NCBI GenBank assembly: GCA_963803875.1
Contig: CAWDOA010000016.1
Span: 619,033 to 683,032, forward strand
Direction: 5' to 3'
DNA: 64,000 nt
DNA from: an uncultured Acidimicrobiales bacterium
GTDB lineage: Bacteria > Actinomycetota > Acidimicrobiia > Acidimicrobiales > SZUA-35
Shown: piece by piece, positions 1,335 through 58,545 of the stretch
Numbering within the stretch: position 1 is the first letter of the stretch
Layout: every line of letters begins with the position of its first letter
Notes under the pieces: generated by a model
Told to the model about the DNA's origin: nothing
The model's database searches: none
Seen by the model: the letters and a program-made list of their open reading frames with translations, nothing else
Translations under genes and position numbers: made by a program

Positions 1335-2126
1335 TCAGTCACCCATCGCAATCATGTGGTTGATGACGCTGTCGGCGGTGGGGGACTCGATCTCGTCGAC
1401 GATCTGCCCGTCGGCCAGGAACACCGCCCGATCGGCGTAGGAGGCGGCGATCGGATCATGGGTGACCATCACGATGGTCTGGCCCATTTCGTTCACGGCT
1501 GACCGCATGAAGCTAAGGATCTCGGCACCGGTGCGGCTGTCGAGGTTGCCGGTGGGTTCGTCGGCGAAGATCACCTTGGGTTGTGAGGCCAGGGCACGAG
1601 CGACCGCGACTCGCTGGCGTTGACCGCCGCTGAGTTCGTCGGGGCGATGGCTCAGCCGGTCACCGAGACCGACTGTGCTGATGACGGTGTCGAGCCAGCT
1701 CTGGTCGGGCTTTGACTTGGCCAGATGCGGTGGGGAGGGTGATGTTCTCTTCCACGGTGAGGGTGGGAATCAGATTGAACGCCTGGAAGACGAAGCCCGA
1801 CCTGATCCCGGCGGAGGCGGGTGAGTTCCTTTTCGTTGAGGTCGCCCAGTTCGATCGCCGCCGACCGACACCGAACCGGAGGTCAGTTGGTCGAGGCCTG
1901 CGACACAGTGCATGAGGGTGGACTTGCCCGAGCCCGACGGGCCCATGATGGCGGTGAAGGCACCCTGGGTGAAGTCGACGCTCACCCCGTCGAGGGCCCG
2001 AACCTCGGTGTCACCGGTGCGGTAGGTCTTCACCGCATTCCGGGCGCTGGCTGCGATCGTTGGCGGAGTGACCGGCAGCTTCGTTGCCGTTGACCCTGTT
2101 GTGGTTTCGATGCTGAGCAGTGACAT
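1335..2126 (-). pseudogene. ABC transporter ATP-binding protein (MacB/LolD-like), three frame breaks as written
   Basis: Walker A GPSGSGKST is in ORF 1770..2126. LSGGQRQRVAVARAL (signature) is read by manual frame-stepping just upstream of ORF 1335..1574. VIFADEPTGNLD (Walker B) is mostly in ORF 1335..1574, which starts at MIFADEPTGNLD. The middle (IELGDLNEKELTRLRRDQVG / FVFQAFNLIPTLTVEENITL / PPHLAKSKPDQSWLDTVISTVGLGDRLSHRPDE) is readable only by stepping +1 near 1858, 1796 and 1734. The net +3 puts the two ends back in one frame. Confidence 0.8.
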
Positions 2127-2423: not shown

Positions 2424-2496
2424 GCCCTTGTAGCTCAGTGGATAGAGCGTCGGTTTCCTAAACCGTGCGTCGCAAGTTCGATTCTTGCCAAGGGCG
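2424..2496 (+). tRNA. tRNA-Arg (anticodon CCT)
   Basis: 73-nt cloverleaf: acceptor GCCCTTG/CAAGGGC, D arm GCTC-AGTGGATA-GAGC, anticodon loop TTCCTAA (CCT), T arm GCAAG-TTCGATT-CTTGC, discriminator G. CCA is not encoded. Confidence 0.9.
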
Positions 2497-2569
2497 CTCC
2501 GATCTTGGCCGAGTTCAGGTGGCGTGGTCATGTGCTGTGACGCAGTCTCGGCACCCTGGTGCGTTTGTT

Positions 2570-3912: not shown

Positions 3913-4248
3913 ATGGTTCTGGTGGTACTCACGCTTGGTTCGGCAGGAGCCTTTCTGTTCTATGGGTATGAGACGCTGTTTGGGGATCCTCGGCGAGCGG
4001 AGTTCGAGCGCTACGGGATGTCGAGACTGAGAGTCTTTGTCGGATGTATGCAAGTGCTGGGAGCGGTGGGCACTTTGATCGGGCTCGCATCTGCCCCGAT
4101 CGGGGCTGCGGCCGCTGGTGGTTTGACATTGATGATGTTGCTCGGCTTGCTCGTGCGGTACCGGATTCACGATGCGCCTCGGTTGATGGTGCCGGCAGCA
4201 ACGCTCGCTGCGGTCAACGGTGCGCTTCTCTTCCTTCACCTGGGGTGA
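3913..4248 (+). CDS. DoxX-like family small membrane protein
   Basis: 111 aa, about 4 hydrophobic segments, with a pattern typical of DoxX-like proteins (FxxYGxxxxxRxxxGxxxxxGAxGxLxG ... RxHD). Confidence 0.7.
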   Translation: MVLVVLTLGSAGAFLFYGYETLFGDPRRAEFERYGMSRLRVFVGCMQVLGAVGTLIGLASAPIGAAAAGGLTLMMLLGLLVRYRIHDAPRLMVPAATLAAVNGALLFLHLG

Positions 4249-4262: not shown

Positions 4263-4370
4263 GCGATAGCTTCCATCACGGTGTCGAACTGATCACAGCT
4301 CGGTGAGGCAGTGGTCACACGGCGGCCACTCGACTTAGCACTAAATGCTGAGCGGGTCTTTACTCTGGCC

Positions 4371-5189
4371 ATGTCCTTCGAGAATCTCTATGACTACTCC
4401 TCAACTCAGTTCGAGATAGTACTGAGCGTCTTTACCCTGACGGCCGCAGTGTTTGCTGCGGTGCTCGTGTACTCGCTGGCAACAGCCGGGTCCATTGCCC
4501 CCCGCTATCGCATCACGTCGTATTTGACCGGCGTGGTCATGGTCAGCGCAGTGCTGGAGCTCGGACTGTTGGCCCTCCGATGGTCAGGCTCGTTCTCCTG
4601 GAACGGGGAGAGCTACACCCTCACCGGCGACCTGTTCTCCAACGGTTTCCGCTACATGAACTGGAGCATCGACGTTCCTGTCCTGCTCACACAGCTACTG
4701 GTGGTGGCCGGCATCACCGGAGGTGTGTTCTTCCGCCGGTGGGCCTCCTTCGTCGTGGCCGGTCTCGCAATGATCTGGACCGGCTACGTCGGTCAGTTCG
4801 ACGAAGTCGACGGAGGCGCCCAGTTCTGGATCTGGGGTGCCATCAGCACCGTCTTCTATTTGTGGCTTCTCTATGTCGCCTATCAGACCATCAGCGATGC
4901 CCGTGCGAATGCCTCAGAGTCGGTGAGCCGCCTCTTCGGCATCGTGTGGATCCTCTTCCTCGTCTCCTGGACGATCTACCCCGTTGCATACCTCATGCCC
5001 CAGATCTGGGACACGGCCAACGGTGTGGTTGCACGCAACCTGATCTACAGCTTCGCCGACATCAGCTCCAAGGCTGTGTACGGCATCCTTCTTGCCGTGA
5101 TCGCCCAGAAGGTGAGCGCCGAAAAGGGTTTCAAGCCGGCCATCGAATCGGACTTCTGGTCTGACCGCAAGGCGGAGGTGGCGCCATGA
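4371..5189 (+). CDS. microbial (type I) rhodopsin, NDQ motif = sodium-pumping rhodopsin type
   Basis: Seven hydrophobic segments. Helix C reads RYMNWSIDVPVLLTQ (N/D/Q at the BR D85/T89/D96 positions). The retinal lysine is in FADISSKAVYG. The protein aligns along its length with KR2-type NaR as I recall it (GDLFSNGFRY, WGAIS, IWILFLVSWTIYPVAYLMP). Start is ATG 4371 (MSFENLYDY), with GTG 4311 possible. Confidence 0.9.
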   Translation: MSFENLYDYSSTQFEIVLSVFTLTAAVFAAVLVYSLATAGSIAPRYRITSYLTGVVMVSAVLELGLLALRWSGSFSWNGESYTLTGDLFSNGFRYMNWSIDVPVLLTQLLVVAGITGGVFFRRWASFVVAGLAMIWTGYVGQFDEVDGGAQFWIWGAISTVFYLWLLYVAYQTISDARANASESVSRLFGIVWILFLVSWTIYPVAYLMPQIWDTANGVVARNLIYSFADISSKAVYGILLAVIAQKVSAEKGFKPAIESDFWSDRKAEVAP

Positions 5190-5665
5190 CGACCGTGGCG
5201 ACAACCTCCCCCCTTGACCGGCCCTATCCCGAGCACGAGTCGAAGCCGTTCTTTGCGGAAACGATCACTCTCCTCCGATCGGTCAGGGATCACGATTTCG
5301 ACACGCTGGCTGGATTGTGCGATGACGACTACGGGATCGTCGACATCGCTCCCGACGGGACAAACGTGGCCATCAGGACCCGTGAAGAGTGGGAGGGATG
5401 GTTCCACGGTCTCTTCGGTCAGCTGACCGCAATGGGCGCTGATACCGACAGCGAGATACTGGCCTATGACGCCGTGGGTGCAGAGTCGATGGGCTATTCG
5501 GTACTCGAATTCCGACAGACCTTGAAGGTGGGCGACCTCGTGGCGTCATTCGACTGCATGACCACCATCGTGTGGAAGAAGGCCGACGGCGTCTGGCGCG
5601 AAGCTCGATGGCACGGTTCGGTGTTGTCCAGCGACGTGCCCCCGGGACTGGGAAGCGATTCGTGA
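5186..5665 (+). CDS. NTF2-like / SnoaL-like (DUF4440-type) small protein
   Basis: 159 aa. The ATG overlaps the rhodopsin stop (ATGA, 4-nt overlap). The pattern LLRSVRDHDFDTLAGLCDDDY ... EWEGWF ... TTIVWKKADGVWREARWHGS is typical of the NTF2-like fold. Confidence 0.7.
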   Translation: MTTVATTSPLDRPYPEHESKPFFAETITLLRSVRDHDFDTLAGLCDDDYGIVDIAPDGTNVAIRTREEWEGWFHGLFGQLTAMGADTDSEILAYDAVGAESMGYSVLEFRQTLKVGDLVASFDCMTTIVWKKADGVWREARWHGSVLSSDVPPGLGSDS

Positions 5666-7031: not shown

Positions 7032-7418
7032 CTACCGGCCGTCGTGGTTTCCGCCGTTGAGGATCGCCGCTACTGCTGCTCCGGTGAAGACTGAGATGGC
7101 AGGTATGGAGCGCTTGAGGGGATCCTTGACTTTGACGTGCATTCCGATTGCCCCGAGCATCATTGTGGCGAGGCCGATTGATGCTGGCCGAGCGATCTTG
7201 GGGACGAAGAGCCCGATCAGCATCATGATGGCGAGGCTCACCTTCGTGGCTCCGACTACGTACATGGTTCTTTCCGAGAGTCCGTATTCCTCAAACTCTT
7301 CTCGCATGTTCGTTGCGTCACCGCCTCGATATCCGGTGTCTTTGTTGAATCGGTTGAACCAGACGTTGAGGAGCCAGAGTGCGGATGCGGTTTGGGCGAT
7401 CTTGCCGATGATGGTCAT
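7032..7418 (-). CDS. DoxX-like family membrane protein (second, divergent copy)
   Basis: 128 aa with hydrophobic segments. The EEFEEYGLSERTMYVVGATKVSLAIMMLIGL ... MHVKVKD pattern matches the DoxX-like family. Confidence 0.65.
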   Translation of the reverse strand: MTIIGKIAQTASALWLLNVWFNRFNKDTGYRGGDATNMREEFEEYGLSERTMYVVGATKVSLAIMMLIGLFVPKIARPASIGLATMMLGAIGMHVKVKDPLKRSIPAISVFTGAAVAAILNGGNHDGR

Positions 7419-7719: not shown

Positions 7720-8649
7720 TCACGACCTCGCGGGGCCGGACGCGGGGAGTGGTTGGCGGAACAGTCCGTCCGGGATCGGGGCGTTGCAGCGCACTAATGC
7801 GAGTTGCCAGGATGGTGATGCGCCGAGTGCCCATCGGAGTGCGCCCGTAGCGTTCTTTCCGATTCCGGCCGCGCGTTTGCCTGGCTCGACGTCCAGTTGG
7901 GTTCGGATGTCGGAGGGAATCGTGGTCAGGGCGGCTTCGAACAGCAGCCGGTAGCCGATCTTGACCGGCGGGTTCAGCGGAGGGTTGCGGAGAAAGCTGA
8001 TGGCGCTCGCCTGTGCTTTGGTCGCGACGCGATCGGGATGGTTGGTGATCCAGTGAGAGAGTTCTTCCGCTGTTTCGGGAAGCGGATCAGCACCCAAGAG
8101 CTTGCCGATCCGGGTCTGTTCGGCCACAAAACGGTCAGCGTCCGCGACGCTGAGCCGGTCTGGGCCGAACGCCTGGTAGGAAGCAAGGAACGAGTCGGTC
8201 AAGACGTTGTGGACCCATGCCGCCATCTCGGGACGGCTGGCACTGTAGGGGAGGTTCCGTTCAGACAATCCTTTCACGGGACGGTGTGCTCGACGAACAA
8301 CCTGCACGGCGGATTCAACCTCGGGCATCGCCCCATAGGTGGTTTCAGTGACATACACCGAGGTACGCGACAATCGTCCGAGAGGGTCCGAGCGATAGGT
8401 CGAGTGGTCCTCCACCCCGGCTACAACTTCAGCGTGGGCAGACTGGACCACCAGTGCCCGGATCCCTCCCACGAACACCGCAGCATCGCCGAGCACTCGC
8501 CACGACACCGACTCGGGTCCGAGCAGTCCAGGATCGCCGGGGAAGTCCAGAGTGTTCGCCAACGGTGTTGGGCCGTGTGAGAACAGGCCCGTCATCGCCG
8601 ACACAACCGGGTCACGAAGCTTGCGGCTCAAATTGCTCATGGCCAACAC
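7720..8649 (-). CDS. DUF2236 / MpaB-type oxygenase family protein
   Basis: 309-aa ORF. The segment SVSWRVLGDAAVFVGGIRALVVQSAHAEVVAGVEDHS is characteristic of DUF2236. The C-terminal ~40 aa look less protein-like. ATG at 8640 is an alternative start. Confidence 0.65.
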   Translation of the reverse strand: MLAMSNLSRKLRDPVVSAMTGLFSHGPTPLANTLDFPGDPGLLGPESVSWRVLGDAAVFVGGIRALVVQSAHAEVVAGVEDHSTYRSDPLGRLSRTSVYVTETTYGAMPEVESAVQVVRRAHRPVKGLSERNLPYSASRPEMAAWVHNVLTDSFLASYQAFGPDRLSVADADRFVAEQTRIGKLLGADPLPETAEELSHWITNHPDRVATKAQASAISFLRNPPLNPPVKIGYRLLFEAALTTIPSDIRTQLDVEPGKRAAGIGKNATGALRWALGASPSWQLALVRCNAPIPDGLFRQPLPASGPARS

Positions 8650-14626: not shown

Positions 14627-16320
14627 GTGATGGCCCGAACTCCGCTGATCGATCTCATCAAGCGCTCCATCATCGGCGACGACGAGGTCGTCGACGGACC
14701 CTTCGGTCCCCGTCCGGTTGTGTACGCCGACTACACGGCTTCGGGTCGTTCGTTGTGTTTCATCGAGGACTACATCCGCACCGTCGTCCTGCCCCTGTAC
14801 GCCAACACCCACACCGAGTCCTCCGGCACCGGGCTCCAGACCTCCCGCTTCCGTGAAGATGCACGACAGATCATCGCTGAATGCCTCGGCGCTTCAGATG
14901 AACATGCGGTCCTGTTCTGCGGCAGCGGTTCCACGATTGCGATCGATCGGATGGTCGGGGTGCTCGGGATCCGCATCCCGTCGAACCTCGCCGATCGGTA
15001 TCACTTCGGCGCCCAGATTCCCGAAGACGAGCGGCCGGTGGTCTTCATCGGTCCATACGAACACCATTCCAACGAACTCCCGTGGCGGGAGTCGATCGCA
15101 ACGGTCGTCACCATCGACGAGGACGCCGACGGTCACGTCGACCTCGAGCGGCTCGAAGCCGCATTGGTCGAGTATGCGGATCGGCCATTGAAGATCGGGT
15201 CCTTCTCCGCCGCATCGAACGTGACCGGCATCGTCACCGACACGCGGGCTGTCTCCGGCATGCTGCACAACACGATGCCCTGGCCTTCTGGGACTTCGCA
15301 GCCGCCGCACCCTATGTCGAAATCGACATGGGATCAGTCGACGACGGAGACGGTTACTACGACGCCGTGTTCATCTCACCTCACAAACTGATCGGTGGAC
15401 CCGGAACACCTGGCGTGTTGTGTGCCCGTCGGGAGTTGTTCACCAACCGGGTGCCCGCATGTACCCGGCGGGCGGAACGGTCGCCTACGTCAATCCCGAC
15501 GACCACAGCTATCTCACCGACATCGAACATCGGGAGGAAGGCGGTACTCCGGCAATCGTCGAATCGATCCGGGCCGGCCTGGTTTTCCAGCTCAAAGAAG
15601 CGGTCGGCGTCGACACAATTCGAGAGAATGAAGAACGTTTCGTCCGAACCGGCCATCTCCTCCTGGCACGACGACCCGAACCTCCAGATTCTCGGCAATC
15701 AAGAGGTCGAGCGGCTGTCGATCGTCTCGTTCGTGGTTCGCCACGGCGAGAACGGGTTCCTGCATCACAACTATGTGGTGGCGTTGCTGAACGATCTTTT
15801 CGGCATCCAGTCGCGCGGCGGTTGTTCGTGCGCTGGACCCTACGGACATCGTCTGCTCGGAATCGATCTCGACCAGTCACACGAATTCGAACGGGAGATC
15901 AACCAGGGGTGTGAGGGCATCAAGCCCGGGTGGGTGCGGGTGAACTTCAACTACTTCATCACCGACGCCACCCTCCAATACGTGATCGACGCCGTCCATT
16001 GGGTGGCGGCTCACGGAGCAGCTCTGCTTCCCGAATACCGGTTCGAACCCAGTTCGGGGCTCTGGAAACATCGTGACGCTCCCCGCACCGCACCGATGAG
16101 CCTGCACGACATCAGCTACGACGGAGTGGGGCTGAACCACGCCGATCATCGCCAGCGACTGGGTTCAACCGATCTCTCCGAGTTTCTGGTCGAAGCCGAT
16201 CGGATTCTCAAACACAAACTCGGCGAGGGCATGGCGCCACTGGATCCGCCAGAGACGACCGCAGACTTCGAACACCTGCGTTGGTTCCCCTACCCCAACG
16301 AGGCCCCCGGTGGGAACTAG
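14627..16320 (+). pseudogene. class V aminotransferase / cysteine-desulfurase-like PLP enzyme, three frame breaks as written
   Basis: YADYTASGR, YANTHTE and SFSAASNVTG are in ORF 14627..15391. HDALAFWDFAAAAPY...ISPHKLIGGPGTPG is in ORF 15082..16320. GGTVAYVNPDDHSYLTDIEHREEGGTPAIVESIRAGLVF is in ORF 15420..15914. The sequence then returns to QSRGGCSCAGPYGH. Steps are near 15268, 15457 and 15650. Confidence 0.75.
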
Positions 16321-21064: not shown

Positions 21065-21583
21065 GTGAGCGAACCGGACCACACGCCGGCGTTCGACGGA
21101 AGTCAAGGTCGAATCTCCATCGACAACGCGCTACGGACCGCGCAACAGAACACCTTGCAGCTGAGCGCCATGGCCGATCAGAAAGCGAGCGTCGTGCTCG
21201 GTGCCGCGTTCGTGATGGCGACGATCGTGGTCGGGGACCTTGACGGAACCAACGACCTCGTGCAGTTGATGTTGCTGATCACGGCGATCGGATCGGGGGC
21301 AGCAGCCGGTCTGGCGCTGATGCCGGGCTCACAATCCAGAGCAGCGAAGGGTCATCCCAACCCGCTGTTCTTCAACGGTGTCGTGAAGATGACCGAAGCC
21401 GAGTATTTCAGCGAGATGCGGCGGGTCACCAAAGACGATGCGGCGTTGTATCAGGCGATCTGTACCGATCTGTACTTGTCCTCCATCGCTTTGGGGAAAC
21501 GGAAGTTCCCGCTGCTGAGATTCAGTTATCAGTTTTTGATCCTCGGCATGCTGGTGACCTTGGCGACGGCCGTAGTCACCTGA
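21065..21583 (+). CDS. 3-TM protein resembling the DUF5706 / Pycsar-effector domain (tentative)
   Basis: 172 aa. It has N-terminal AMADQKASVVLGAAFVMATIVVG (TM1), a second TM, then NPLFFNGVVKMTEAEYFSEMRRV...LSSIALGKRKFPLLRFSYQFLILGMLV (TM3). The family is assigned from a remembered pattern only. Confidence 0.5.
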   Translation: MSEPDHTPAFDGSQGRISIDNALRTAQQNTLQLSAMADQKASVVLGAAFVMATIVVGDLDGTNDLVQLMLLITAIGSGAAAGLALMPGSQSRAAKGHPNPLFFNGVVKMTEAEYFSEMRRVTKDDAALYQAICTDLYLSSIALGKRKFPLLRFSYQFLILGMLVTLATAVVT

Positions 21584-33743: not shown

Positions 33744-36555
33744 TCAGTCGGCAAATGCCTCCAGCGGCGGGCATGAACACTGGAGGTTTCTGTCGCCGTG
33801 CGCGTTGTCGATCCGGCCCACCGGCGGGAAGTACTTGTCGCGCTCCATTCCCGGCAGCGGAAACGCCGCCTGCGCTCGGCTATAGGGTCGGCTCCACTCG
33901 TCGCTGAGAACATCGGCAGCGGTGTGAGGGGAATGGCGCAGCACGCTCTCATCGATGTCGACATCGCCGGAGGCGATCGCGCCGATTTCGTTGGCGATAC
34001 CGATCATGGCATCGCAGAAGCGGTCGAGTTCGGCCAGGCTCTCGCTCTCGGTCGGCTCGATCATCAACGTCCCCGCAACCGGGAAGCTCATTGTCGGGGC
34101 GTGGAATCCGTAGTCCGCCAGTCGCTTGGCAATGTCGTCGACGTCGATGCCTGTGCTCTCGTGGAGCGGGCGGATGTCGATGATGCACTCATGAGCAACA
34201 AGACCTCCCGGCCCGGTGTAGAGGATCGGGTAGTGCTCACGGAGTCGTGACGCGATGTAGTTGGCGGCCAGAACTGCGCCTTCGGTAGCTCGGCGTAGTC
34301 CCTCGGGGCCCATCATTCGGATGTACATCCACGAGATCGGAAGGATCCCCGCTGATCCGTAGGCGGCTCCTGAGACTCGACGTTGGCGTTCGCCAAGGTC
34401 GGCCAATTCAACCTGGGGCAGGAACGGAATCAGGTGTTCTCCAACCCCGATGGGGCCAACGCCGGGGCCGCCGCCACCATGGGGGATGCAGAATGTCTTG
34501 TGAAGATTGAGGTGGCTCACGTCGGACCCGAATGATCCGGGCTGGGCCACCCCGACCAGCGCGTTCAGATTGGCGCCATCGGTGTAGACCTGGCCGCCGG
34601 CGTCGTGAACCATCTGGCATACCTCCGCCACGGTGTGTTCATAGACACCGTGGGTGCTCGGGTAGGTGATCATCAGGGCTGCAAGTTCGTTGCCGTGGGT
34701 CGTGATCTTGGCCCGCAGGTCATCGAGGTCGATGTCGCCGCGATCATTGCAGGCGACGACGACGACTTTCAAGCCAGCCATAACCGCAGATGCGGCGTTG
34801 GTGCCGTGGGCGCTCTGAGGGATGAGGCACACGGTTCGGTGGCCTTCGCCGCGAGCGTCCTGCCAACCCTTGATGGCGAGCAGCCCTGCGTATTCACCTT
34901 GACTTCCGGCGTTGGGCTGCAAGCTGATGGCGTCGTACCCGGTGATCGCCGCTAGATCGGCTTCGAGATCGCCAATCAGCTGCAGATACCCGGCGGTTTG
35001 CTCAGCGGGAGCGAACGGATGAATGCCGGCGAACTCGGGCCAGGTGATGGGCTCCATCTCGGCGGCTGCATTCAGCTTCATGGTGCACGACCCCAACGGG
35101 ATCATCGTGCGGTCGAGAGCCAGATCTCGGTCGGCAAGCCGTCGCAGCCAACGCAGCATCTCGTGTTCGCTCTGAAAACGGTGGAACCTGTCGTCGGTGA
35201 GGAACGAAGAGCTTCGCGACAGCGACGTCGGTATTCCCGAACCTTCTTCCGACAGGTAATCGACTCCAAATGCGTCGAGCAGGTTGCGCACGGTCTGGCC
35301 AGTGGTGGTCTCGTCGAAGCTCACCGAGATGTGGGTGTCGCTGAACCTCCGTGATGTTGATTCCTTTTGCGGCTGCGGCGGCGACCATCGTGTCGGCGTC
35401 ACCCGCAATGGTCACGGTGTCGAAGAACGTTTCGGAGCACTCATGACCGGCCGCAGCCATGGACGACCGAAACGTCGATGTCAGACCGTTGATGCGCTCG
35501 GCAATGGCAGTGAGTCCGTCGGGCCCGTGCCAGCACGCATAGGATGCCGCAACGTTGGCCAGCAGCGCTTGGGCAGTGCAAATGTTGGATGTGGCCTTGT
35601 CCCTGCGGATGTGTTGTTCCCTTGTCTGAAGGGCAAGGCGATAGGCGGGGTGGCCGTGGCTGTCGATACTGACACCGACCAGACGGCCCGGAAGGGACCG
35701 GGCGTGTTTCTCCTTGGTCGCCATGAAGCCGGCGTGAGGGCCACCGAAACCCATGGGTACCCCGAAGCGTTGAGCGCTGCCGACCACAACGTCGGCGCCC
35801 GCTTCGCCAGGGGGAGTGCCGAGCGTGCAGTAGAACAGGTCGGTGGTAACAGCTGCCGTCGCCTGGGCATCGTGAAGTGATCGAATGATCGGGCCGAGGT
35901 CGGAGATGGCCCCGGACGATCCGGGCTGAGCAAGCAATGCGCCGTACACCTCATCGGGAACGAGATCGGTGGCGGGGTCACCGATGGTGACGTCGATCCC
36001 GAGCGGTTCGGCTCGGGTGAGGCAGACTGCGATGGTCTGCGGATGACAGTCCTGGTCTACGAAGAACCCGTTCCGTTTGGTTCGGTCGAGGCGGCGGAGC
36101 ATGGTCATCGCTTCGGCCGATGCGGTCGATTCGTCCAGCAACGATGCGTTTGCTAATTCACAGCCGGTGAGGTCGGCGATCATGGTTTGGAACACCAAAA
36201 GCATTTCCAGTCGGCCCTGACTGATCTCGGGCTGATATGGCGTGTAGGCCGTGTACCACGCCGGGTTTTCGATCATGTTGCGACGAATGACCGCTGGTGT
36301 GATGGTGTCGTTCCAGCCTTGACCGATCAGTGAAGTGAAGACCTGATTCTGGTCGGCGTAGGCCCGAAGGGCGGCGATCGCCTCGGTCTCCGAGAGGGCC
36401 GAGGGTACCCCCAACGGCCCATCGATCTGGATGTCATCGGGCACTGCGTCTCCCAGCAGATCCGATGCTGACCCGTAGCCGAGACCGGCCAGCATCTTGG
36501 CCCGATCGTCGTCGGTGAGGCTTATGTGGCGATCGGCGAATGAGTGGTGGGACAT
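33744..36555 (-). pseudogene. gcvP: glycine dehydrogenase (decarboxylating), single-chain P-protein; one frame break as written
   Basis: ORF 35002..36603 carries the N-terminal half (AWYTAYTPYQPEISQGRLE, GFGGPHAGFMA, REQHIRRDKATSNICT). ORF 33744..35408 carries the C-terminal half ([25 protein letters not shown]). The junction GINI|[14 protein letters not shown] is near 35350. The ATG at 36555 abuts the gcvT stop. Confidence 0.9.
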
Positions 36556-36556
36556 G

Positions 36557-37666
36557 TCAAGCTCCTCGGTGGAAACGGTGGGGGGTGAAGGGCAGGGATG
36601 CAACGGTGCAGACGACGTCGTTCCCGCGCACGTCGGCGATCAGTTCGGTTCCGATGGCGGCCAGTTGCGGTGGGACATAACCCATCGCAACCGGAGCTTG
36701 GACGGTAGGACCGAAGCCGCCACTGGACACCACGCCGCAAGGCTGAGTCCCTCCGGCAACTCTCAATTCAGCGCCATCCCGGACCGGTCGTCGACCACGG
36801 GGCGCCAGCCCAACCCGGACACGGGAAGGCCCTTCGGCCCACTCCCGCAGAACTCGCTCAGCACCGGGAAAGTCTGCGGCATCGCGACGCCGTTTGGGGA
36901 TGGTCCATTTCAGGTCGGCCTCGACCGGGGATGTGGTTGTGTCGAGATCGTTGCCGTAGAGGCAGAGACCAGCTTCGAGGCGCAGGGTGTCGCGTGCTCC
37001 GAGGCCAGCCGGTCGAACCCGATCGTCGGCCAGCAGCAATCGGGCGAGTGCCTCGGCGTTGTTTGTATCGACCGCGATTTCGAAGCCGTCCTCGCCGGTG
37101 TAACCGGCCCGGAATGCTGCTGCCGGAATCCCGCCCAGTTCTGTGGCACGGGCGTCGAGAAACACCGTGTCGGCCAGTCCGGCATCGTGGGCGATTACTA
37201 CATCGGCTGCTGCCGGGCCCTGGAGGGCGATGAGGGCGATCCCCGGCTTTGGACGTACCTCGATGCCGGTGAGCCGTTCGGTGAGGTGAGGAATGTCCAC
37301 ATGGGCTCGCGCCGCGTTGACCACCAGCGTGAAGTGTTGGCCCCAGTTGATCGCCATGAAGTCGTCGATCACCCCGCCATCGTCGTTGGTGAGGAGGCCA
37401 TATCGCTGCCGACCCTCGCCGAGGTTCGCGAAACCGGCCGGTGAGACCGTTTCGAGTGCCGTTCCGGGGTCAGCGCCCCACAGTTCAACCACTGCCATAT
37501 GGGCCACGTCGAAAAGGGCTGCGCTGGTGCGGCACCAGTTGTGCTCGGCCACAACTCCCTCGTACTGGATGGGCATCTCCCACCCTGCGAACGGCACAAG
37601 CCGTGCGCCCAGTTCCTGGTGAAGTTGGTGCAGCGGGGTTGTTTTCAAAGAGTCTGGACTTGACAC
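36557..37666 (-). CDS. gcvT: glycine cleavage system aminomethyltransferase T-protein
   Basis: PLHQLHQELGARLVPFAGWEMPIQY, SAALFDVAHM, GYTGEDGFEI, ARDTLRLEAGL. The start is set at GTG 37666 (GAGG 9 nt upstream), because the longer ORF start at 37726 lies inside the riboswitch. Confidence 0.9.
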   Translation of the reverse strand: MSSPDSLKTTPLHQLHQELGARLVPFAGWEMPIQYEGVVAEHNWCRTSAALFDVAHMAVVELWGADPGTALETVSPAGFANLGEGRQRYGLLTNDDGGVIDDFMAINWGQHFTLVVNAARAHVDIPHLTERLTGIEVRPKPGIALIALQGPAAADVVIAHDAGLADTVFLDARATELGGIPAAAFRAGYTGEDGFEIAVDTNNAEALARLLLADDRVRPAGLGARDTLRLEAGLCLYGNDLDTTTSPVEADLKWTIPKRRRDAADFPGAERVLREWAEGPSRVRVGLAPRGRRPVRDGAELRVAGGTQPCGVVSSGGFGPTVQAPVAMGYVPPQLAAIGTELIADVRGNDVVCTVASLPFTPHRFHRGA

Positions 37667-37699: not shown

Positions 37700-37880
37700 C
37701 CCCTCTGTCAGTGTGCCTGAGAGCATTTGCCCCTTCGGCGGTCGGCCTCACCAATCCCCAGGTGACCAACTCTCTCCAGAGGAGCCGGAGTGCAGATGCG
37801 GTACGGGGGCCTGAGAGATTCCGGGGTGGTTGCTCCTTCGGCGACCGGGATTGGACCGGTGCTCTCCCACACTGCTGTGC
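37700..37880 (-). promoter_or_regulatory. tandem glycine riboswitch (two aptamers)
   Basis: The minus strand reads GGGAGAGCACC...CGCCGAAGGAGCAAC...CTCTCAGGC, then CTCTGGAGAGAG...CCGCCGAAGGGGCAAATGCTCTCAGGCAC...ACAGAGGG. These match the two conserved aptamer cores, directly upstream of gcvT. Confidence 0.85.
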
Positions 37881-42150: not shown

Positions 42151-45100
42151 ATGACTCATAACGAGGGAAAATGGGAAGGACGTCCTGTTGTCGCAGGGAT
42201 CCTGCGCGTTCTCATCACCCTCGCGCCCATCGCCATCTCTATCATCCTCGTCACGGTCGCAAGCAGAGTTGTTCCGCGACCCGATGGCTGGCTCAAAACG
42301 ATCAGCTGGTGGGTTGTCCTCTCCATCTTCGCCACCATCGTCTTGTTGGTGTTCGATCGACTCTTCCGGCGACTGATGCCGATCGTCGCCATGTTCAAGC
42401 TGTCGCTGATCTTCCCTGACCGAGCCCCAACGCGCTTCCGGGCGGCCCTTCGGAGCGGCACGGTCCGGCAGTTGCAGCGCAAGATGGAGTCGGGCGAGTT
42501 CAGCAGGGCGGCGCCGCAGGAAGCCGCCGAAGCCCTGATCGCACTCGCAAGCACGTTGAACGCGCATGACCGGCTGACGCGGGGCCACACCGAGCGGGTC
42601 CGGGCCTATTCGGTGATGATCGGACAGGAGATGGGCCTCGACGACCACGAACTTGAACTCCTCAACTGGTCCGGGCTGGTCCACGACATCGGCAAACTCA
42701 CGGTGCCAGCGGAGATTCTCAACAAGGACGGAAGGCCGACCGACCAGGAGTGGCAGATCCTTCGGCAACATCCTGCGAAAGCCGATGCCCTCGTCGAGCC
42801 GCTGCGGACCTGGCTGGGCGAATGGGCCGAGTCGGCCACTCAACATCACGAGTACTATCGACGGCAACGGCTATCCGCATGGGCTTGCCGGTCGGGAAAT
42901 ATCGCTCGCGGGGCGGATCGTTGCGGTCGCCGATGCGTACGACGTGATGACCTCGGCCCGCTCCTACAAGCAACCGATGCCAGCTTCGGAGGCTCGTCGA
43001 GAGCTAGCGGCCAACGCCGGCACCCAGTTCGATCCCCAGGTCGTTCGAGCCTTCCTCGGTGTCAACGTCGGCCGACTGCGATTGGTTGCGGGCCCTCTCG
43101 GATCGCTCGCGCAGCTGCCCGCCGGTTCGGCAACGATCGGTTCGGTGGCGACGACCGGGGCAAGCGTGGTCGCCACCATGGCGGTTGGAGCGTTCACCGG
43201 TCTCTACGGCCCGCAGGTCGAGGTGGCGGCTCCCACCGTCCCTGAAACGGTCGCCCTCGTGGCAGAAGCTCCCGATTACACGGTTTGGGGGGCCGAGGAC
43301 CAGACGCTCGAAGCCGATCTCAGCGAACTCGTCACCGACCTGGGGGTTCAGGTAAGTCTCCTCGACGAGCCCGAGAACGGCACTGCCGAAGTCTCGTCCT
43401 CCGGGCGAGTGTCGTTCTCGCCCGACCCGAACTTCAACGGCACTGTGATCCTGCCCTACTCGGCTTGTATCGAGGATGGAGCGTGCGATTTCGGGTCGCT
43501 CACGTTCGTCGTCGAAGCGGTGAATGACCGGCCGACCGCGGCCGACGACTCGGCGACCGTCATCGAGAACACACCATTGGCTATCGCGGTGTTGGACAAC
43601 GACGAGGATCTCGATGGTGATCCCCTCACGGTCAGCTCGGTGACAGCAGTGACGGGCGGTTCTGCGTTCAGCGACGGGTCGACCGTCACCTTCGTCCCCA
43701 CCCCGCGCTCCACCGGCCCCGCCAGCTTCACGTACTCGATCATCGATGGCAAGGGCGGCTCGGCTTCGGCTCAGGTTGCCCTGACGGTCGTCGACGACCC
43801 GGATCGTCCTTTGCTCGTGGCCGACTCGGTGACATCGCCCGAGGACCAGACTGTCGTGATCGACGTGCTCGGCAACGACAGTAGCGATGCGCCGCTCGAC
43901 CCGTCCGAACTGGCAGTCGTGCGCCCGCCGAGTTCGGGCACCGCCACGGTGGTGAGCGGTGCCGTCACCTACGTCCCGGCCGCGAACTGGTTCGGCGTGG
44001 ACACCTTCGACTACTTCGTCTGTGACGTCGAGGAGTTCTGTGACGTTGAGACAGCGACTGTCTCGGTCGGTTCGGTCAACGACCCGCCGACGTTCGTCGG
44101 GGGCGGACCGCCGGTCGTGCTCGAGGACTCCGGCGCACACGTTCTTGTGAACTGGGCGACCGCAATCGATCCGGGATCCGACGAGGTCGGGCAATCGGGA
44201 ACGTTCACCGTGGCGACGGACAACCCCGACCTGTTCGACGTGCAGCCCACGGTCTCGCCAACGGGGGACCTGTCGTTCACGCCTGCACCCGACGCCAATG
44301 GAACGTCGACGATCTCGGTCACGCTTCGCGATTCGGGCGGAGCCGCGGCGGGCGGTTCCGATACGAGCTCACCGTTCGAAACCCAGATCGTCGTGATCGC
44401 CGTGAACGACCTGCCATCTTTCAGCCCGGGACCGGCGTACACGATGACCGAGGACTTTGGCCCGACCGTGATCCCGGGCTGGGCAACAGGATTCAGTCCG
44501 GGGCCGGCCGATGAGACGGGTCAGGAACTGTCCTTCACCGTCGTCGCCGATGACCCGTCGCTCTTCGGTACTCAGCCCGCGATCTCGCCGGCGGGAGATC
44601 TGTCCTTCGCTCCGGCGGTCGACGCAAACGGTGCAGCGAACTTCACCATTCGGTTGGTCGACGACGGAGGAACGGAGTTCGGTGGCGTCGACACGAGCCC
44701 TGCTGCCACAGCAACGCTCACGATCGAACCGGTGAACGATCCGCCCAGCTTTGTCGCCGGGCCTGACGTCGTAGTGCTCGAGGATGCAGGTGGCCAAACG
44801 ATCGCCGGATGGGCGACCGCCATCTCGCCCGGTCCCCCCGATGAGATCGGTCAGACCGTTGCCTTCGCCGTGGTGGCGGACGATCCGTCGCTGTTTGCGG
44901 TGCAGCCGGCACTCTCGTCTTCGGGGGATCTGACCTTCACACCACAACCGGACACCGCCGGTTCGGCGATCATCACGATTACCACTTCCGATGACGGCGG
45001 AACCGCCCTCGGCGGCATCGACACCGGCCCACCGGTCACGGCGGCGGTCACGATCGACCCCGTCGACGACGCGCCCGAAGCATACGACGATGCAACCGCC

Positions 45101-48088
45101 ACGAGCGGGCCGGGGTTGACAAACATCGCGGTACTCGGCAACGACATCGACCTCGACGGAGACCTCGATCCCGCCTCCGTCTCGATCGTTGTCACTCCGG
45201 TCAAGGGCACTGCCGTACCGAATCCCGACGGCACGATCGGCTATACGCCGACCCCCGGGCAAACCGGACACCGACTCGTTCGTCTATCAGGTCTGTGACC
45301 TGGCGTCTGCATGCGACACCGCCACGGTGACCGTCGGGATCATGGGGCCGAATGCGGCCGACGACAGCGCCACCACCGACGAAGATGCACCACCGATCAC
45401 CATAGATGCGTTGGCCAACGACACGGACCCAACCCCTGATCTCGATCCGACGTCGGCCGTCGTCGTCACCGCACCGGCAAACGGGTTGGCGACGGCAAAC
45501 GGCGACGGGACCTTCGACTACGTATCGGACCCCCACTACTTCGGGATCGATTCGTTCGAGTACCGGGTGTGCGATCTCGCCGGTTCATGCGCCGAGGCCA
45601 CCGTCGACGATCGATGTCGCCACCGTCCCCGATGCACCGGGCGGTCAGGCCGATGCATTCGTGACCGATCGCGACGCCCCCATAGCGGTTGGCGCTCCGG
45701 GTGTGCTCGCCAACGACCACGACTACGACGATGATCCACTCACGGCAGTACTCGACACCGGGCCCGGTTCCGGCGCGGTCACGCTCGACCCGGATGGGTC
45801 GTTCACGTACACGCCGAACGCCGGCTTCACCGGTTCGGACAGCTTCACCTACACCGCCTTCGACGGAGCGATTGTCATCGACCCCGACGACCGTCGTCGA
45901 TCACCGTCGACTCGGGCGTCGCGGCCGAAGGGTTGGTTCCTCGGCGACAGTGGAGCCACCGCGGACGACTTCGACCTCGTGGCGACGCCTCCGACCCCCG
46001 GCGATCCGGATCCCGACGGAGATCTCGATCCCGGATTGACGATCCTGAGGAGCGATGGGTCTCAGACCGATCCCGATCCGCTGAACTACCACCACTGGAT
46101 CCTGAATCCTGGCGCATCGGCTCTCGATCTCAACGGTCCCGTGACGCTCAAGCTCTGGAGCACGCTGGCCGGGTTCGAACTCGGTGCTGACGTCGACTGT
46201 CGGCGTGGCTGTACGACTGCGATGCTGTCACCCTCGGTTCGTGCTCACCCGCCTTGTTGAGCCTACGAGAACGCCCACACCAACAACTGGAACGATGGGG
46301 TTGCGGACTTCGCGTATCGCGAGATCACTCTCGGAAGCCTGACCCACACGGTTGCACCGGGTCGCGTGCTCAAACTTGCGGATGATGTTCGGGCATGAGG
46401 ACATGTGGGTCGCCATGGACTCCGCCCACCCCTCCGAGCTGGAACTCACTCTCGCCAACGCGAGCCCCAATGCCGTCGACGATTCGTATCCGATGGGCTC
46501 GCCGGTTCTGGAAGGTGGCCCGCTCGTCAACCTCGATGTGTTGTCCAACGACATCGACGACGACCTCGATCCGACGAGCCTCTCCATCGAGCCGGCACCA
46601 ACGCCGGCAGGCGCGCTGGTTGTCAAAGGTGACAACACCCTCGACTACACGCCTTCGCCGGACTTCGTCGGAATCGACACGTTCGACTACCGGGTCTGCG
46701 ATCTCGGTGGTCTCTGCAGCGTCGCGACCGTCACGGTCACCGTTACGCCGGTCAACGATGCTCCTTCCTTCGTGAAGGGTTCGGACCAGACTGTCCCCGC
46801 AGATTCGGGCGCCCAGTCCCGGGTTGGATGGGCGACGTCGCTCAGCCGAGGCCCTGCCGACGAAGCAGGCCAGACGCTGACCTTCAACATCACTGCCAAC
46901 ACCAACCCCGGCTTGTTCTCCGCCCAACCGCAGGTCTCGTCGACCGGAACGTTGCTGTTCACACCGGCAGCCGGGCAGGACGGCTCGGCCACTATCACCA
47001 TCGAACTGCAGGACGATGGGGGAGTGGTCGACGGCGGCATCGATACTTCTCCTCCACAGACATTCGAGATCATCGTTGACGATCACGGGATCGTCGTGTC
47101 GGAGTTCCGACCGGCCGGACCGGGCGGCGGCAACGACGAGTTCGTCGAGCTCTTCAACGCTGGAGTTGTGCCAGAGGATCTGACCGGATGGCGACTGCAC
47201 ATCACGAGCGCACTCGATTTCGATTTCTACACCTTCCCGGCAGTGACGCTCCTCCCGGGTCAGCACTATCTCGTGACCCATCCGGGATCACCGCAAGCAG
47301 GCTTTGCCGACGACACCTGGAGCGGGCTGATCTACGGCTCAGGGTTCGGTGATGTGCAGGTTCTCACCTCGACCGGAACCCAGGTCGACGCGTTCCACTA
47401 CGGCTCGGGCCCGACGGTCGGCGAGGGAGCCGCCCTTCCGTCGTGGAACAACCCCGCCGGCCTCGACGGCAGCTGGGAGCGACTGTTCGGCGGAGCGTAC
47501 GGGAACTGTGTCGACAGCGACGACAACCGGACCGACTTCGTGCGCAACTACGGCAAGAGCACACTCCAGAACATGTCGTCACCGTTCACGCCCTGCGGCA
47601 GTCCAACCACCGCCGACAGCGTGATCATCAGTGAGGTTCGGCCGAATGGACCGGCAGGCATCGGCGATGAGTTCATCGAAGTCGTCAACGCGACGAGCTC
47701 CATGGTCGACATCGGCGGGTGGGCGATCGAGATTCCCCAAACCCTCCACACCTTCGCACCGGGCACGTTGTTGGCACCGGGAGAGACCTATGTGATCGGG
47801 TCACCCTCGGGGTACAGCGGCTTCGCCGACGCCGATTACAACGGGGCCGTTGCGTTCCCGTATCTCGGGAACGACCACTACGTAGCGCTGATGAACGGCA
47901 CCACGGTGATCGACGCCATCGCCTGGGGTTCGGGAACTGCCGAGGGCACACCGATGCCTTCCTACGACGGTGTTGCCTTCAATGACGTCAGCTATGAGCG
48001 CGGCCACGGCGGGTGCTCGGACTTCGACGACAACCTCGGTGACTTCGTGCTGTCCTTCGCCAGCACCCCTGGAACCGCCGGCTGCTGA
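42151..48088 (+). pseudogene. giant membrane protein: TM + HD-GYP domain + TM + cadherin-like/VCBS-like repeat array + two lamin-tail-like (LTD) domains; ~9 frame breaks as written
   Basis: N-terminal TMs. HD-GYP: HTERV, LVHDIGK, QHHEY|IDGNGYP (step ~42855), DAYDVMTS. A hydrophobic segment VATTGASVVATMAVGAF follows. Next come repeated ~100-aa modules with VNDxP, DxDGD and FxYxVCD motifs through ORFs 42653..45298, 45189..45734, 45406..46260 and 46352..48088. The C-terminus has two SE(F/V)RP..G..DEF(V/I)E(L/V)(F/V)N modules. Confidence 0.75.
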
Positions 48089-57330: not shown

Positions 57331-58545
57331 CTATGCGCTCATGACCGCCCGAGCCGCCAGCTGGCCGCTTTCCATCGCTCCGTTGATGCTGGCATCTCGC
57401 CGATGGTCACCACACACGACGATCCCACTTTCCAGCGTTGTAGCCGGACGATGGTCATATCCTGGCAGCTGAATTGGTTGAGCCTGAGGGATTCGATCGA
57501 CCCGCAGGGTTTCCCAATCTCGGGTCTGGGCTCCGAGCAGATCCTCGAGTTGGGACCGCATGGCATCTTCGGTGCCGTGCGCCACGGTGGGCGCCGATGC
57601 TACGACGGTGCTGGAACCTGGCGGGGCGTACGCCGGTGAGACCGAGCTCATGGTGACTACCGAATTCAATGGTCGTTTGCCGGTGCCGTTCAGCACGATC
57701 AGCGGCGCTGTCTCGGGCGGGGTGGGGGCGGAGAACCACATGCTGGTGACCCCGCGCCACCCGGGATCTGGAACGTCGGTGAGTCGGGCGGCTTCGGTGG
57801 CTCCGGTGGCCACGATGACCGCATCGGCGTCGATGGTCTCGCCGCTTGTGAGCGTCACGGTGCGCGCCGTGGTCTTTGCCACCTTGCGATTGAGATGCAG
57901 TGTGCCCTCTTCGAGTCGAGCAGCCAGTTGCGTACTGATCTCACCCATTCCGTGGCGGGGAACCGCGGCGTCGCCCTGGGCGAGCATTCGGAATACGAAA
58001 TCGACCACTCGGCTGGATCCGCCGAGATCAGCATCGAGTGTGATCCCGGCGAACAGCGGCTGAAGAAAACGTTCGATCATCGTGGGGCTGAACCCCAGTT
58101 CACGAAACCGGGTTCGGGCCGTGACGTCTTCACGGTCCCAGAGTTCCTCGAGTGTTCCCCGGGTGACCATCAGGCGGTACCGGAGGATTCGCGCCTTGTC
58201 GAACAGAGATCCGACGCCGGCTTTGATCGTTGGTAGCAACTGATCGGGTTTGCGGAACGGGTCGCCAACGAGTGCGGTTTGACCACCGCCCAGGAGAACC
58301 TTGGCGCCGGGGTCGAAGGTCTGAAGGTCGAGGGCGTCGAAGTCGAGTACGTCGCCGGCTGTGGGGTAGGCGGTGAGAAGGATCTGGAAACCTCGATCGC
58401 ACAGGTGGCCGTTCACCGTGTCGGTTCGGACCCGTCCGCCCGGCCCGTCCGATGATTCGAAAACTGCAACCGCGTGACCGTTCGCTGTCAGTTCGCTTGC
58501 GGCGGTGAGCCCAGCTAGTCCGGCGCCTACTACGACGATGTCCAC
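57331..58545 (-). CDS. NAD(P)/FAD-dependent oxidoreductase (amine-oxidase / phytoene-desaturase superfamily)
   Basis: Dinucleotide fold [16 protein letters not shown]...[11 protein letters not shown]. 404 aa. Substrate not inferable. Confidence 0.75.

Follow-up and report, generated by a model that had tools for sequence, protein, structure and literature searches.

Rhodopsins with the NDQ motif (Asn, Asp and Gln where bacteriorhodopsin has residues 85, 89 and 96), the NaR or sodium-pump rhodopsin clade, were divided by Podoliak et al. 2024 (PMC11006869) into Subgroup 1, with Leu or Ile at the position of L74 of KR2 (Dokdonia/Krokinobacter eikastus rhodopsin 2) and including KR2 itself, and Subgroup 2, with Glu at this position and including ErNaR of Erythrobacter sp. 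HL-111 (PDB 8QLE/8QLF/9TBD) and SrNaR of Salinarimonas rosea. In ErNaR, which has been shown to pump Na+ between pH 5 and pH 9, this Glu aims at the Schiff base, bonds D105 and acts as an extra counterion, to which the authors tied the Na+ pumping at pH 5–9 with negligible H+ current (PMC11006869). From actinobacteria, a Micromonospora NDQ rhodopsin was among twelve NaRs screened in 2017 (PMC5531490), and NDQ rhodopsins of the Geodermatophilaceae were reported in 2020–2023, with MspDR of Modestobacter assayed in 2024 (bioRxiv 10.1101/2024.05.16.594530). Here we analyzed a rhodopsin gene and its downstream neighbor in a stretch of 64,000 nucleotides, hereafter the window, from an uncultured Acidimicrobiales bacterium (GenBank assembly GCA_963803875.1, contig CAWDOA010000016.1, positions 619,033 to 683,032 of the forward strand). 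A preliminary description made from the sequence alone had presented this gene as a KR2-type, NDQ-motif sodium-pump rhodopsin in an unusual, actinobacterial host; we confirmed the observation and found its interpretation partly supported.

The rhodopsin is encoded as follows.

4371..5189, plus strand: rhodopsin coding sequence of the NDQ Subgroup-2 type, 272 aa plus stop codon (from the open reading frame (ORF), Pfam, PDB matches and AlphaFold2 model)

The reading frame (4311..5189, plus strand) opens at a GTG at 4311 and closes with a TGA at 5187–5189. The ATG at 4371 was taken as the start because the resulting 272-aa product (N-terminus MSFENLYDY) is identical to the database protein P0001, encoded on an 814,801-bp NCBI/ENA contig, the close homologs all start with M/V-S/T-F-E-N-L, the same N-terminus, and the N-terminus aligns with ErNaR residue 3. 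The product matched the Pfam family Bac_rhodopsin (PF01036) with an E-value of 3.6e-34, and its sequence matches in the PDB were ranked as ErNaR 8QLE (2.8e-68), the NTQ chloride pump (~1e-55), KR2 and other NaRs (~1e-52) and xanthorhodopsin (5e-35). The AlphaFold2 model, computed with 35 homologs, had a pLDDT of 91 and seven long transmembrane helices, and was superposed by Foldseek on solved rhodopsins with TM-scores of 0.88–0.91, where the best match was again ErNaR (TM-score 0.90, root-mean-square deviation 1.5 Å, 46% identity). The NTQ chloride pump NmClR/NM-R3 (PDB 5G28, 5B2N) represents a sister family (TM-score 0.91, 40% identity) with a sequence E-value slightly better than that of KR2, but a chloride pump of this type was rejected, as NTQ proteins carry Thr at the central motif position where the window rhodopsin carries Asp. 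The G+C content at third codon positions of the gene (0.78) was similar to that of the adjacent genes, and the G+C content of the window was 58–66%. The actinobacterial context that had been read from the sequence held up, with the phosphoglucose isomerase gene, located on this same 814,801-bp contig, having Acidimicrobiales metagenome-assembled genomes (MAGs) as its best named relatives (84% and 73%) and an F420-dependent LLM oxidoreductase exceeding its NCBIfam cut-off. The gene is thus an intact gene for a type-1 microbial rhodopsin of the NDQ (NaR) clade, and the protein is a new clade member but not a new kind of protein, Subgroup 2 having been described already.

Residue correspondences were obtained from MAFFT alignments to KR2 and ErNaR. 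The KR2 reference sequence was checked to be identical to PDB 7Q36 at 280 of 280 positions, and the ErNaR register was checked at E64, R98, N101, W102, D105, Q112 and D242, which all agreed with the numbering of PMC11006869. The following key positions were located.

4650..4694, plus strand: helix C motif R94-Y-M-N97-W-S-I-D101-V-P-V-L-L-T-Q108 (KR2 R109, N112, D116, Q123)
4659–4661, plus strand: N97, aligned with KR2 N112 (bacteriorhodopsin position 85)
4671–4673, plus strand: D101, aligned with KR2 D116 (bacteriorhodopsin position 89)
4692–4694, plus strand: Q108, aligned with KR2 Q123 (bacteriorhodopsin position 96)
5058..5072, plus strand: helix G D230-I-S-S-K234, aligned with KR2 D251...K255, counterion Asp and Schiff-base Lys, invariant in the clade
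5070–5072, plus strand: K234, aligned with KR2 K255 and ErNaR K246
4557..4559, plus strand: codon of Glu63, aligned with KR2 L74 and ErNaR E64, the extra counterion site that defines Subgroup 2
4629..4631, plus strand: D87, aligned with KR2 D102

Both alignments placed N97, D101 and Q108 at the three motif positions as had been proposed, and the D-x-x-x-K spacing noted earlier corresponds to D230...K234. The KR2-like blocks quoted previously were found to be real against the verified KR2 sequence: window GDLFSNGFRYMNWSIDVPVLLTQ pairs with KR2 GDLFNNGYRYLNWLIDVPMLLFQ, and window ADISSKAVYGILL pairs with KR2 ADVSSKVIYGVLL, matches that by alignment lie far above chance. Besides the NDQ motif, D251, K255 and D102, the window rhodopsin shares with KR2, to which it is ~40% identical with the same fold, R109 (R94), S70 (S59), W113, W215 and P219 (W98, W200 and P204) and the extracellular triad E11-E160-R243 (E4-E145-R222), a type of triad described in PMC11006869. 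It differs from KR2, a member of another subgroup and phylum, in having Glu at L74, Ser at N61 (S50, as the preliminary description had tentatively proposed), Thr at S64 (T53), Ala at G263 (A242), Ser at H30 (S19) and Trp at H180, while T216 is kept as Thr; its N-terminus is also shorter than that of KR2, and the KR2 insertion in the F-G loop is missing. Since Glu63, which the preliminary description had overlooked, stands at KR2 L74, the window rhodopsin belongs to Subgroup 2 and is of the ErNaR type, so that the label 'KR2-type' was imprecise.

With ErNaR, the window rhodopsin shares the NDQ motif, the counterion Glu (E64), the R98/D242/K246 center, the triad (E5-E149-R234), the Trp at KR2 H180 and a C-terminal SAE(E/K)GF(E/K)PA extension. 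ErNaR differs in its alphaproteobacterial host, in keeping His at KR2 H30 (window Ser), in having Ala at N61 (window Ser), Ser at G263 (window Ala) and Glu at D102 (window Asp), and in a D-E loop that is 8 residues longer. According to PMC11006869, Subgroup 2 either lacks D102, which in KR2 serves as a ligand at the interprotomer Na+ site, or has another residue there; the window rhodopsin departs from this pattern in keeping D87, with its block GDLFSNG in register with KR2 GDLFNNG, whereas two other ligands of the site are changed (Y25 to F14 and T83 to S72). SrNaR, compared by description, shares the Glu74 subgroup with the window rhodopsin (PMC11006869).

The NDQ rhodopsins of the actinomycetes Blastococcus, Micromonospora and Pseudokineococcus belong to the same phylum and share the NDQ motif, Glu at KR2 position 74 (Glu74) and Ser at N61 with 54–58% identity to the window rhodopsin, but their hosts are of the class Actinomycetes and they keep His30, with H180 replaced by Val, Leu, Gly or Phe and T216 by Met or Leu. 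In our alignment Blastococcus and Pseudokineococcus had Val at H180 and Met at T216, and for the Geodermatophilaceae NDQ group, to which MspDR belongs, H180 is likewise described as Val and the carotenoid-binding position as Met (bioRxiv 10.1101/2024.05.16.594530). MspDR was compared through its paper; the family-mate that we aligned was a Blastococcus protein 54–55% identical to the window rhodopsin.

We then searched for relatives in GTDB, with each species represented by one genome, and obtained 64 loci. Rhodopsins 65–91% identical to that of the window were encoded at 49 of them, corresponding to ~49 species-level Acidimicrobiia genomes, all MAGs labeled Acidimicrobiales, Acidimicrobiia, Acidimicrobiaceae, Ilumatobacteraceae or Actinomycetota or left unassigned; the remaining loci were those of Pseudokineococcus, several cyanobacteria, Verrucomicrobia, Planctomycetes and one flavobacterium with an NTQ rhodopsin. 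More than 110 protein clusters had at least 64% identity to the window rhodopsin, the named ones being Acidimicrobiia or Actinomycetota MAGs, and the clade is apparently confined to Acidimicrobiia. Together with the published Micromonospora and Geodermatophilaceae proteins, these genomes make the host less unusual than had been thought. For this large clade, our literature search found neither a description nor a functional test: no paper on NDQ rhodopsins in Acidimicrobiia or Ilumatobacter was retrieved, and an Acidimicrobiales genome paper (PMC4337565) made no mention of blh, retinal or sodium.

Conservation was counted over 111 aligned sequences, the window rhodopsin and 110 database homologs. 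KR2 N112, D116, Q123, R109, D251, K255 and E160 were each kept in 111/111, and H180 was replaced by Trp in all 111. Glu stood at L74 in 109, Ser at N61 in 107, Ala at G263 in 100 and Asp at D102 in 57 of the 111 members, while H30 was Ser or Gly across the clade. By alignment, the clade thus has a signature of its own, in which H30 is Ser or Gly, N61 is Ser, S64 is Thr, G263 is Ala and H180 is Trp. This strict conservation across ~49 species-level genomes and more than 110 clusters argues for a selected function.

In a simple neighbor-joining tree (100 bootstrap replicates) that had an NTQ protein (Leeuwenhoekiella, locus L054) as its outgroup, the window rhodopsin fell inside the NDQ clade, in agreement with the preliminary description. 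The Acidimicrobiia rhodopsins were monophyletic with a bootstrap of 100 inside the Glu74 group and adjoined ErNaR. The next clade outward was that of Micromonospora, Blastococcus and Pseudokineococcus (bootstrap 92 internally and 54 for the join), followed by the Glu74 cyanobacterial sequences, with KR2 and the sequences of Verrucomicrobia and Planctomycetes outside. As the deeper nodes were weak (bootstraps of 30–54), the exact sister group of the Acidimicrobiia clade is uncertain. The cyanobacterial Glu74 NDQ rhodopsins (L049, L051, L053, L061) were 300–308 aa long with a hydrophobic, signal-peptide-like N-terminal extension, which the actinobacterial ones lack.

From these comparisons, the window rhodopsin is most likely an outward light-driven Na+ pump resembling ErNaR, a reading to which we assign a probability of roughly 60%. 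It is favored because the NDQ motif, the center formed by the equivalents of R109, D251 and K255, S70 and the E11-E160-R243 triad are all present, because E63 aligns with ErNaR E64, because ErNaR is the closest solved protein by both sequence and fold, because H180 is Trp as in ErNaR and T216 is Thr, unlike in the actinomycete relatives, and because the clade sits in the Glu74 group next to ErNaR.

The analysis shows the sequence with its motif, the fold, the place in the clade, the structure of the operon and the lineage of the host; we infer retinal binding, transport direction and ion specificity along the following lines. By analogy with KR2 and ErNaR, all-trans retinal would be held on K234 as a protonated Schiff base, with D101, helped by E63 and D230, serving as the counterion and accepting the Schiff-base proton after photo-isomerization. 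While the Schiff base is neutral, Na+ from a cytoplasmic vestibule formed by Q108, S50, T53 and A242 would pass it, be held briefly near N97 and D230 (O state) and exit past R94 via the E4-E145-R222 cavity. H+ transport at low pH or low Na+ would be possible.

Several observations weigh against this Na+ pump. The bootstrap for the join of the clade to ErNaR was only 51, and no transport assay was found in the literature for any member of the Acidimicrobiia clade. The vestibule departs from that of KR2 (N61 to S50, G263 to A242 and S64 to T53), and His30 is replaced by S19 in the window and by Ser or Gly in the clade; N61 and G263 are, however, KR2 traits rather than traits of all NDQ rhodopsins, because ErNaR, with Ala and Ser at these positions, still pumps Na+. 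The equation of NDQ with Na+ pumping, on which the preliminary description had relied, is itself not guaranteed, as the tested Glu74 NDQ rhodopsins behave differently from one another: ErNaR pumps Na+ strongly, SrNaR shows almost no transport in E. coli, where its Na+ pumping is very weak and its photocycle very slow, lasting seconds (PMC5531490), and MspDR, the only tested actinobacterial NDQ rhodopsin, transports mainly H+, with H+ pumping at pH 5–6 and weak Na+ pumping at pH 6–7 after addition of carbonyl cyanide m-chlorophenylhydrazone in E. coli (bioRxiv 10.1101/2024.05.16.594530). Finally, no gene for phytoene synthase (crtB), lycopene cyclase (crtY), CrtI or Blh had a Pfam match among the ~60 ORFs of the window, which agrees with what had been noticed before.

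The result for MspDR also leads to an alternative in which the window rhodopsin would be mainly an outward, pH-dependent H+ pump with marginal Na+ transport. The paper on MspDR reports differences from KR2 at L74, N61 and G263, and the window rhodopsin too deviates at N61 and G263; moreover, the actinomycete relatives of MspDR are the nearest homologs of the window rhodopsin from cultured organisms and form the neighboring clade. On the other hand, ErNaR, which has the same Glu, selects strongly for Na+ and its H+ current is negligible, the window rhodopsin has Trp at H180 as in ErNaR and Thr at T216 (Ser in ErNaR) where the actinomycete relatives have Val and Met, and no carboxylate proton donor stands at the position of Q108. 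We therefore regard a predominant H+ pump as unlikely, though with an appreciable chance of being correct. Given that the three tested Glu74 NDQ rhodopsins differ so widely, a member of the Acidimicrobiia clade would provide an informative fourth data point on the selectivity between Na+ and H+.

The rhodopsin gene runs into a second gene at its 3' end.

5174..5178, plus strand: GGAGG Shine-Dalgarno sequence within the 3' end of the rhodopsin coding sequence, 7 nt before the next ATG (read from the sequence)
5186..5665, plus strand: NTF2-like gene (SnoaL_3/DUF4440, CaMKII-hub-like), 159 aa (from the ORF, junction, Pfam and AlphaFold2 model)

The TGA of the rhodopsin gene overlaps the ATG of the NTF2-like gene by 4 nt (ATGA, 5186–5189), and the two genes therefore form an operon that, to judge from this junction, is bicistronic and translationally coupled, a feature that the preliminary description had not noted. 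The pump would be made from this message together with a cytoplasmic NTF2-like protein. The 159-aa partner matched SnoaL_3 in Pfam (E-value 3.6e-7), a profile also matched by 45 of 45 members of its family, and its AlphaFold2 model (pLDDT 89) showed the alpha+beta cone of NTF2. The top 50 Foldseek matches of this model comprised CaMKII hubs (E ~2e-6) and dehydratases including scytalone and bile-acid dehydratase, and a profile search of the PDB returned CaMKII hubs only (E 5e-4). The CaMKII association (hub) domain has the same cone fold but only 14–22% identity, and the partner family has an invariant polar set of its own, consisting of H36, D37, C45-D46-D47-D48, R64, R66, E68, W69, E70, Y94, Q111, C124, K131, E139, R141, W142 and H143. 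A carotenoid-binding NTF2 domain like the C-terminal domain of orange carotenoid protein was considered and rejected, as neither the Foldseek top 50 nor the profile search of the PDB contained such a match. The family comprised 207 database proteins with 57–92% identity, the few named ones being from Acidimicrobiales, Kineosporiaceae and Nanopelagicales MAGs.

The NTF2-like gene was found in the window and at loci L001, L002, L004, L005, L028, L044, L072, L073 and L074–L153. Among 50 Acidimicrobiia loci, it stood beside the NDQ rhodopsin gene in 13–14 (~28%), in three arrangements, namely downstream with an overlap, downstream but on the other strand, or upstream. A rhodopsin gene was beside or within 4 kb of the NTF2-like gene in three of six contigs examined. 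Of 80 metagenomic loci retrieved by means of the NTF2 profile, 50 had a rhodopsin gene directly adjoining the NTF2-like gene; this held for 22/33 of the loci in which both flanks reached 1 kb or more and for 11/16 of those in which both reached 3 kb or more. The commonest order was rhodopsin followed by NTF2-like gene on the same strand. The association of the two genes is thus solid, and it is a more unexpected result than the rhodopsin itself; our literature search returned no relevant paper linking actinorhodopsin to NTF2, SnoaL or DUF4440. The partner rhodopsins were of the DTE type with His at KR2 position 74 (30), NDQ with Glu74 (8, including the window) and NDQ with Ile74 (1). As the family adjoins all three types, its link would concern rhodopsins in general rather than Na+ transport, and since these pumps differ in ion type, a general role is likelier than an ion-specific one.

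Other light-related genes were found near some of these pairs. A regulator with HTH_17 and B12-binding domains (LitR/CarH type) was encoded near the pair in 14 NTF2-centered loci, and such a gene lay divergently upstream of the rhodopsin or the pair in L004 (~148 bp away, opposite strand), L006 and L073 (3251..4024, minus strand). Heliorhodopsin-like genes were found by the pairs in L090 (6510..7268, minus strand), L094, L095 and L097, photolyase-like genes in L095, L097, L114 and L124, and a PAS-SpoIIE phosphatase gene in L072 (2129..3643, minus strand), which suggests loose 'light islands' in actinobacterial genomes. In the 64-kb window itself, no LitR-like regulator, photolyase, heliorhodopsin, second rhodopsin or PAS-SpoIIE gene was present. 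A conserved promoter or operator 5' of the rhodopsin gene was not found either, with the upstream region of the window being unalignable with those of relatives and a scan for the sigma-70 consensus being empty. An AT-rich upstream block was common to L002, L004 and L005 and absent from the window.

Such a gene pair would also be compatible with a slow-cycling photosensor, with the co-translated soluble NTF2-like protein as its transducer. Anabaena sensory rhodopsin with its soluble transducer offers an analogy. The partner here is soluble and its translation is coupled to that of the rhodopsin, genes for B12-type light regulators and for a PAS-SpoIIE protein are repeatedly found beside rhodopsin-NTF2 pairs, and the authors of the SrNaR study speculated on a sensory role for that protein, whose photocycle takes seconds (PMC5531490). 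However, the pump residues are all strictly conserved, the partner is found at only ~28% of the clade loci, and its family also pairs with rhodopsins of the canonical DTE/His proton-pump type. Since pairing at ~28% of loci and with DTE/His rhodopsins is more in keeping with a general role, as an accessory or a co-regulated protein, than with a transducer dedicated to one receptor type, we consider a sensor quite improbable.

Candidate roles of the partner are chromophore handling, assembly, protection from light stress and simple co-regulation. It is possible, though we hold it doubtful, that the NTF2-like protein is an undescribed, dedicated accessory of rhodopsin phototrophy in Actinomycetota, acting in chromophore handling or supply, oligomeric pump assembly or light-signal relay within a module that often includes a LitR/CarH-like regulator, a photolyase and a heliorhodopsin. 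Should the partner act on the pump or on the chromophore, it would be an added component of actinobacterial rhodopsin systems and might bear on retinal supply and handling in opsin-bearing genomes without a linked blh.

The question of retinal supply was pursued with two candidate genes in the window, both of which were rejected. The flavoprotein at 57331..58545, the sole one of amine-oxidase type, scored far below the cut-offs for CrtI (crtI_fam, 50 bits against 238) and HpnE (69.5 against 283). An MPAB/Lcp-type (rubber-oxygenase-like, DUF2236) oxygenase at 7720..8649 on the minus strand, 2.5 kb from the rhodopsin gene, was considered as a polyene-cleaving, retinal-forming enzyme, but none of the related loci has such a gene close to the rhodopsin. 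The gene neighborhoods were highly variable, and no crt- or blh-like family recurred within ~6 kb of the rhodopsin gene in ~50 related genomes. The lack of such genes nearby is therefore the norm of the clade and carries little information on retinal supply, and the chromophore must either be supplied by genes located outside the window or be obtained from the environment.

This lack could also be taken to mean that no retinal is made and that the protein is a chromophore-less opsin that either has no light-driven function or serves a light-independent one in the membrane. Genomes with an opsin but without the last retinal enzyme are indeed a recognized phenomenon (PMC12805836), which we counted in favor of this view. 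Against it, the 64 kb are only part of a contig that measures 815 kb or more, exogenous retinal could serve, and the aligned positions of the retinal pocket and ion path are strictly conserved, implying selection on photochemistry. We consider a chromophore-less opsin highly improbable, the least probable of the explanations discussed here.

Among the other features of the window, genes for DoxX-family membrane proteins flank the rhodopsin (3913..4248, plus strand, and 7032..7418, minus strand), and homologs of both (54% and 70% identity) were found within ~3 kb of the rhodopsin gene in two other Acidimicrobiia MAGs (L014 and L029). The window contains a single tRNA gene.

2424..2497, plus strand: tRNA-Arg(CCT), the only tRNA of the window

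An ABC-transporter ATPase gene (1335..2126, minus strand) is frameshifted with two frame changes, and the glycine dehydrogenase gene gcvP (~33744..36520, minus strand) is frameshifted near 35400; these split housekeeping genes look like indel errors of long-read assembly or pseudogenes, and an aminotransferase fragment (14627..15391) may be a third such case. At 37789..37879 on the minus strand, upstream of gcvP, a match to Rfam RF00504 (56 bits) marks a glycine riboswitch aptamer, and the called ORF at 36497..37444 (plus strand) is probably spurious. A 172-aa protein encoded at 21065..21583 (plus strand) matched the Pycsar effector transmembrane domain PycTM (1.2e-13), with no cyclase gene evident adjacent to it. 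A series of large surface proteins with Big_9/cadherin-like repeats, one with an N-terminal HD_5 domain and one with lamin-tail domains, is encoded at 42653..48088 (plus strand) and may represent a single gene broken by frameshifts. The combination of HD_5 and Big_9 was also found in the related MAG locus L072 (8076..10001, plus strand).

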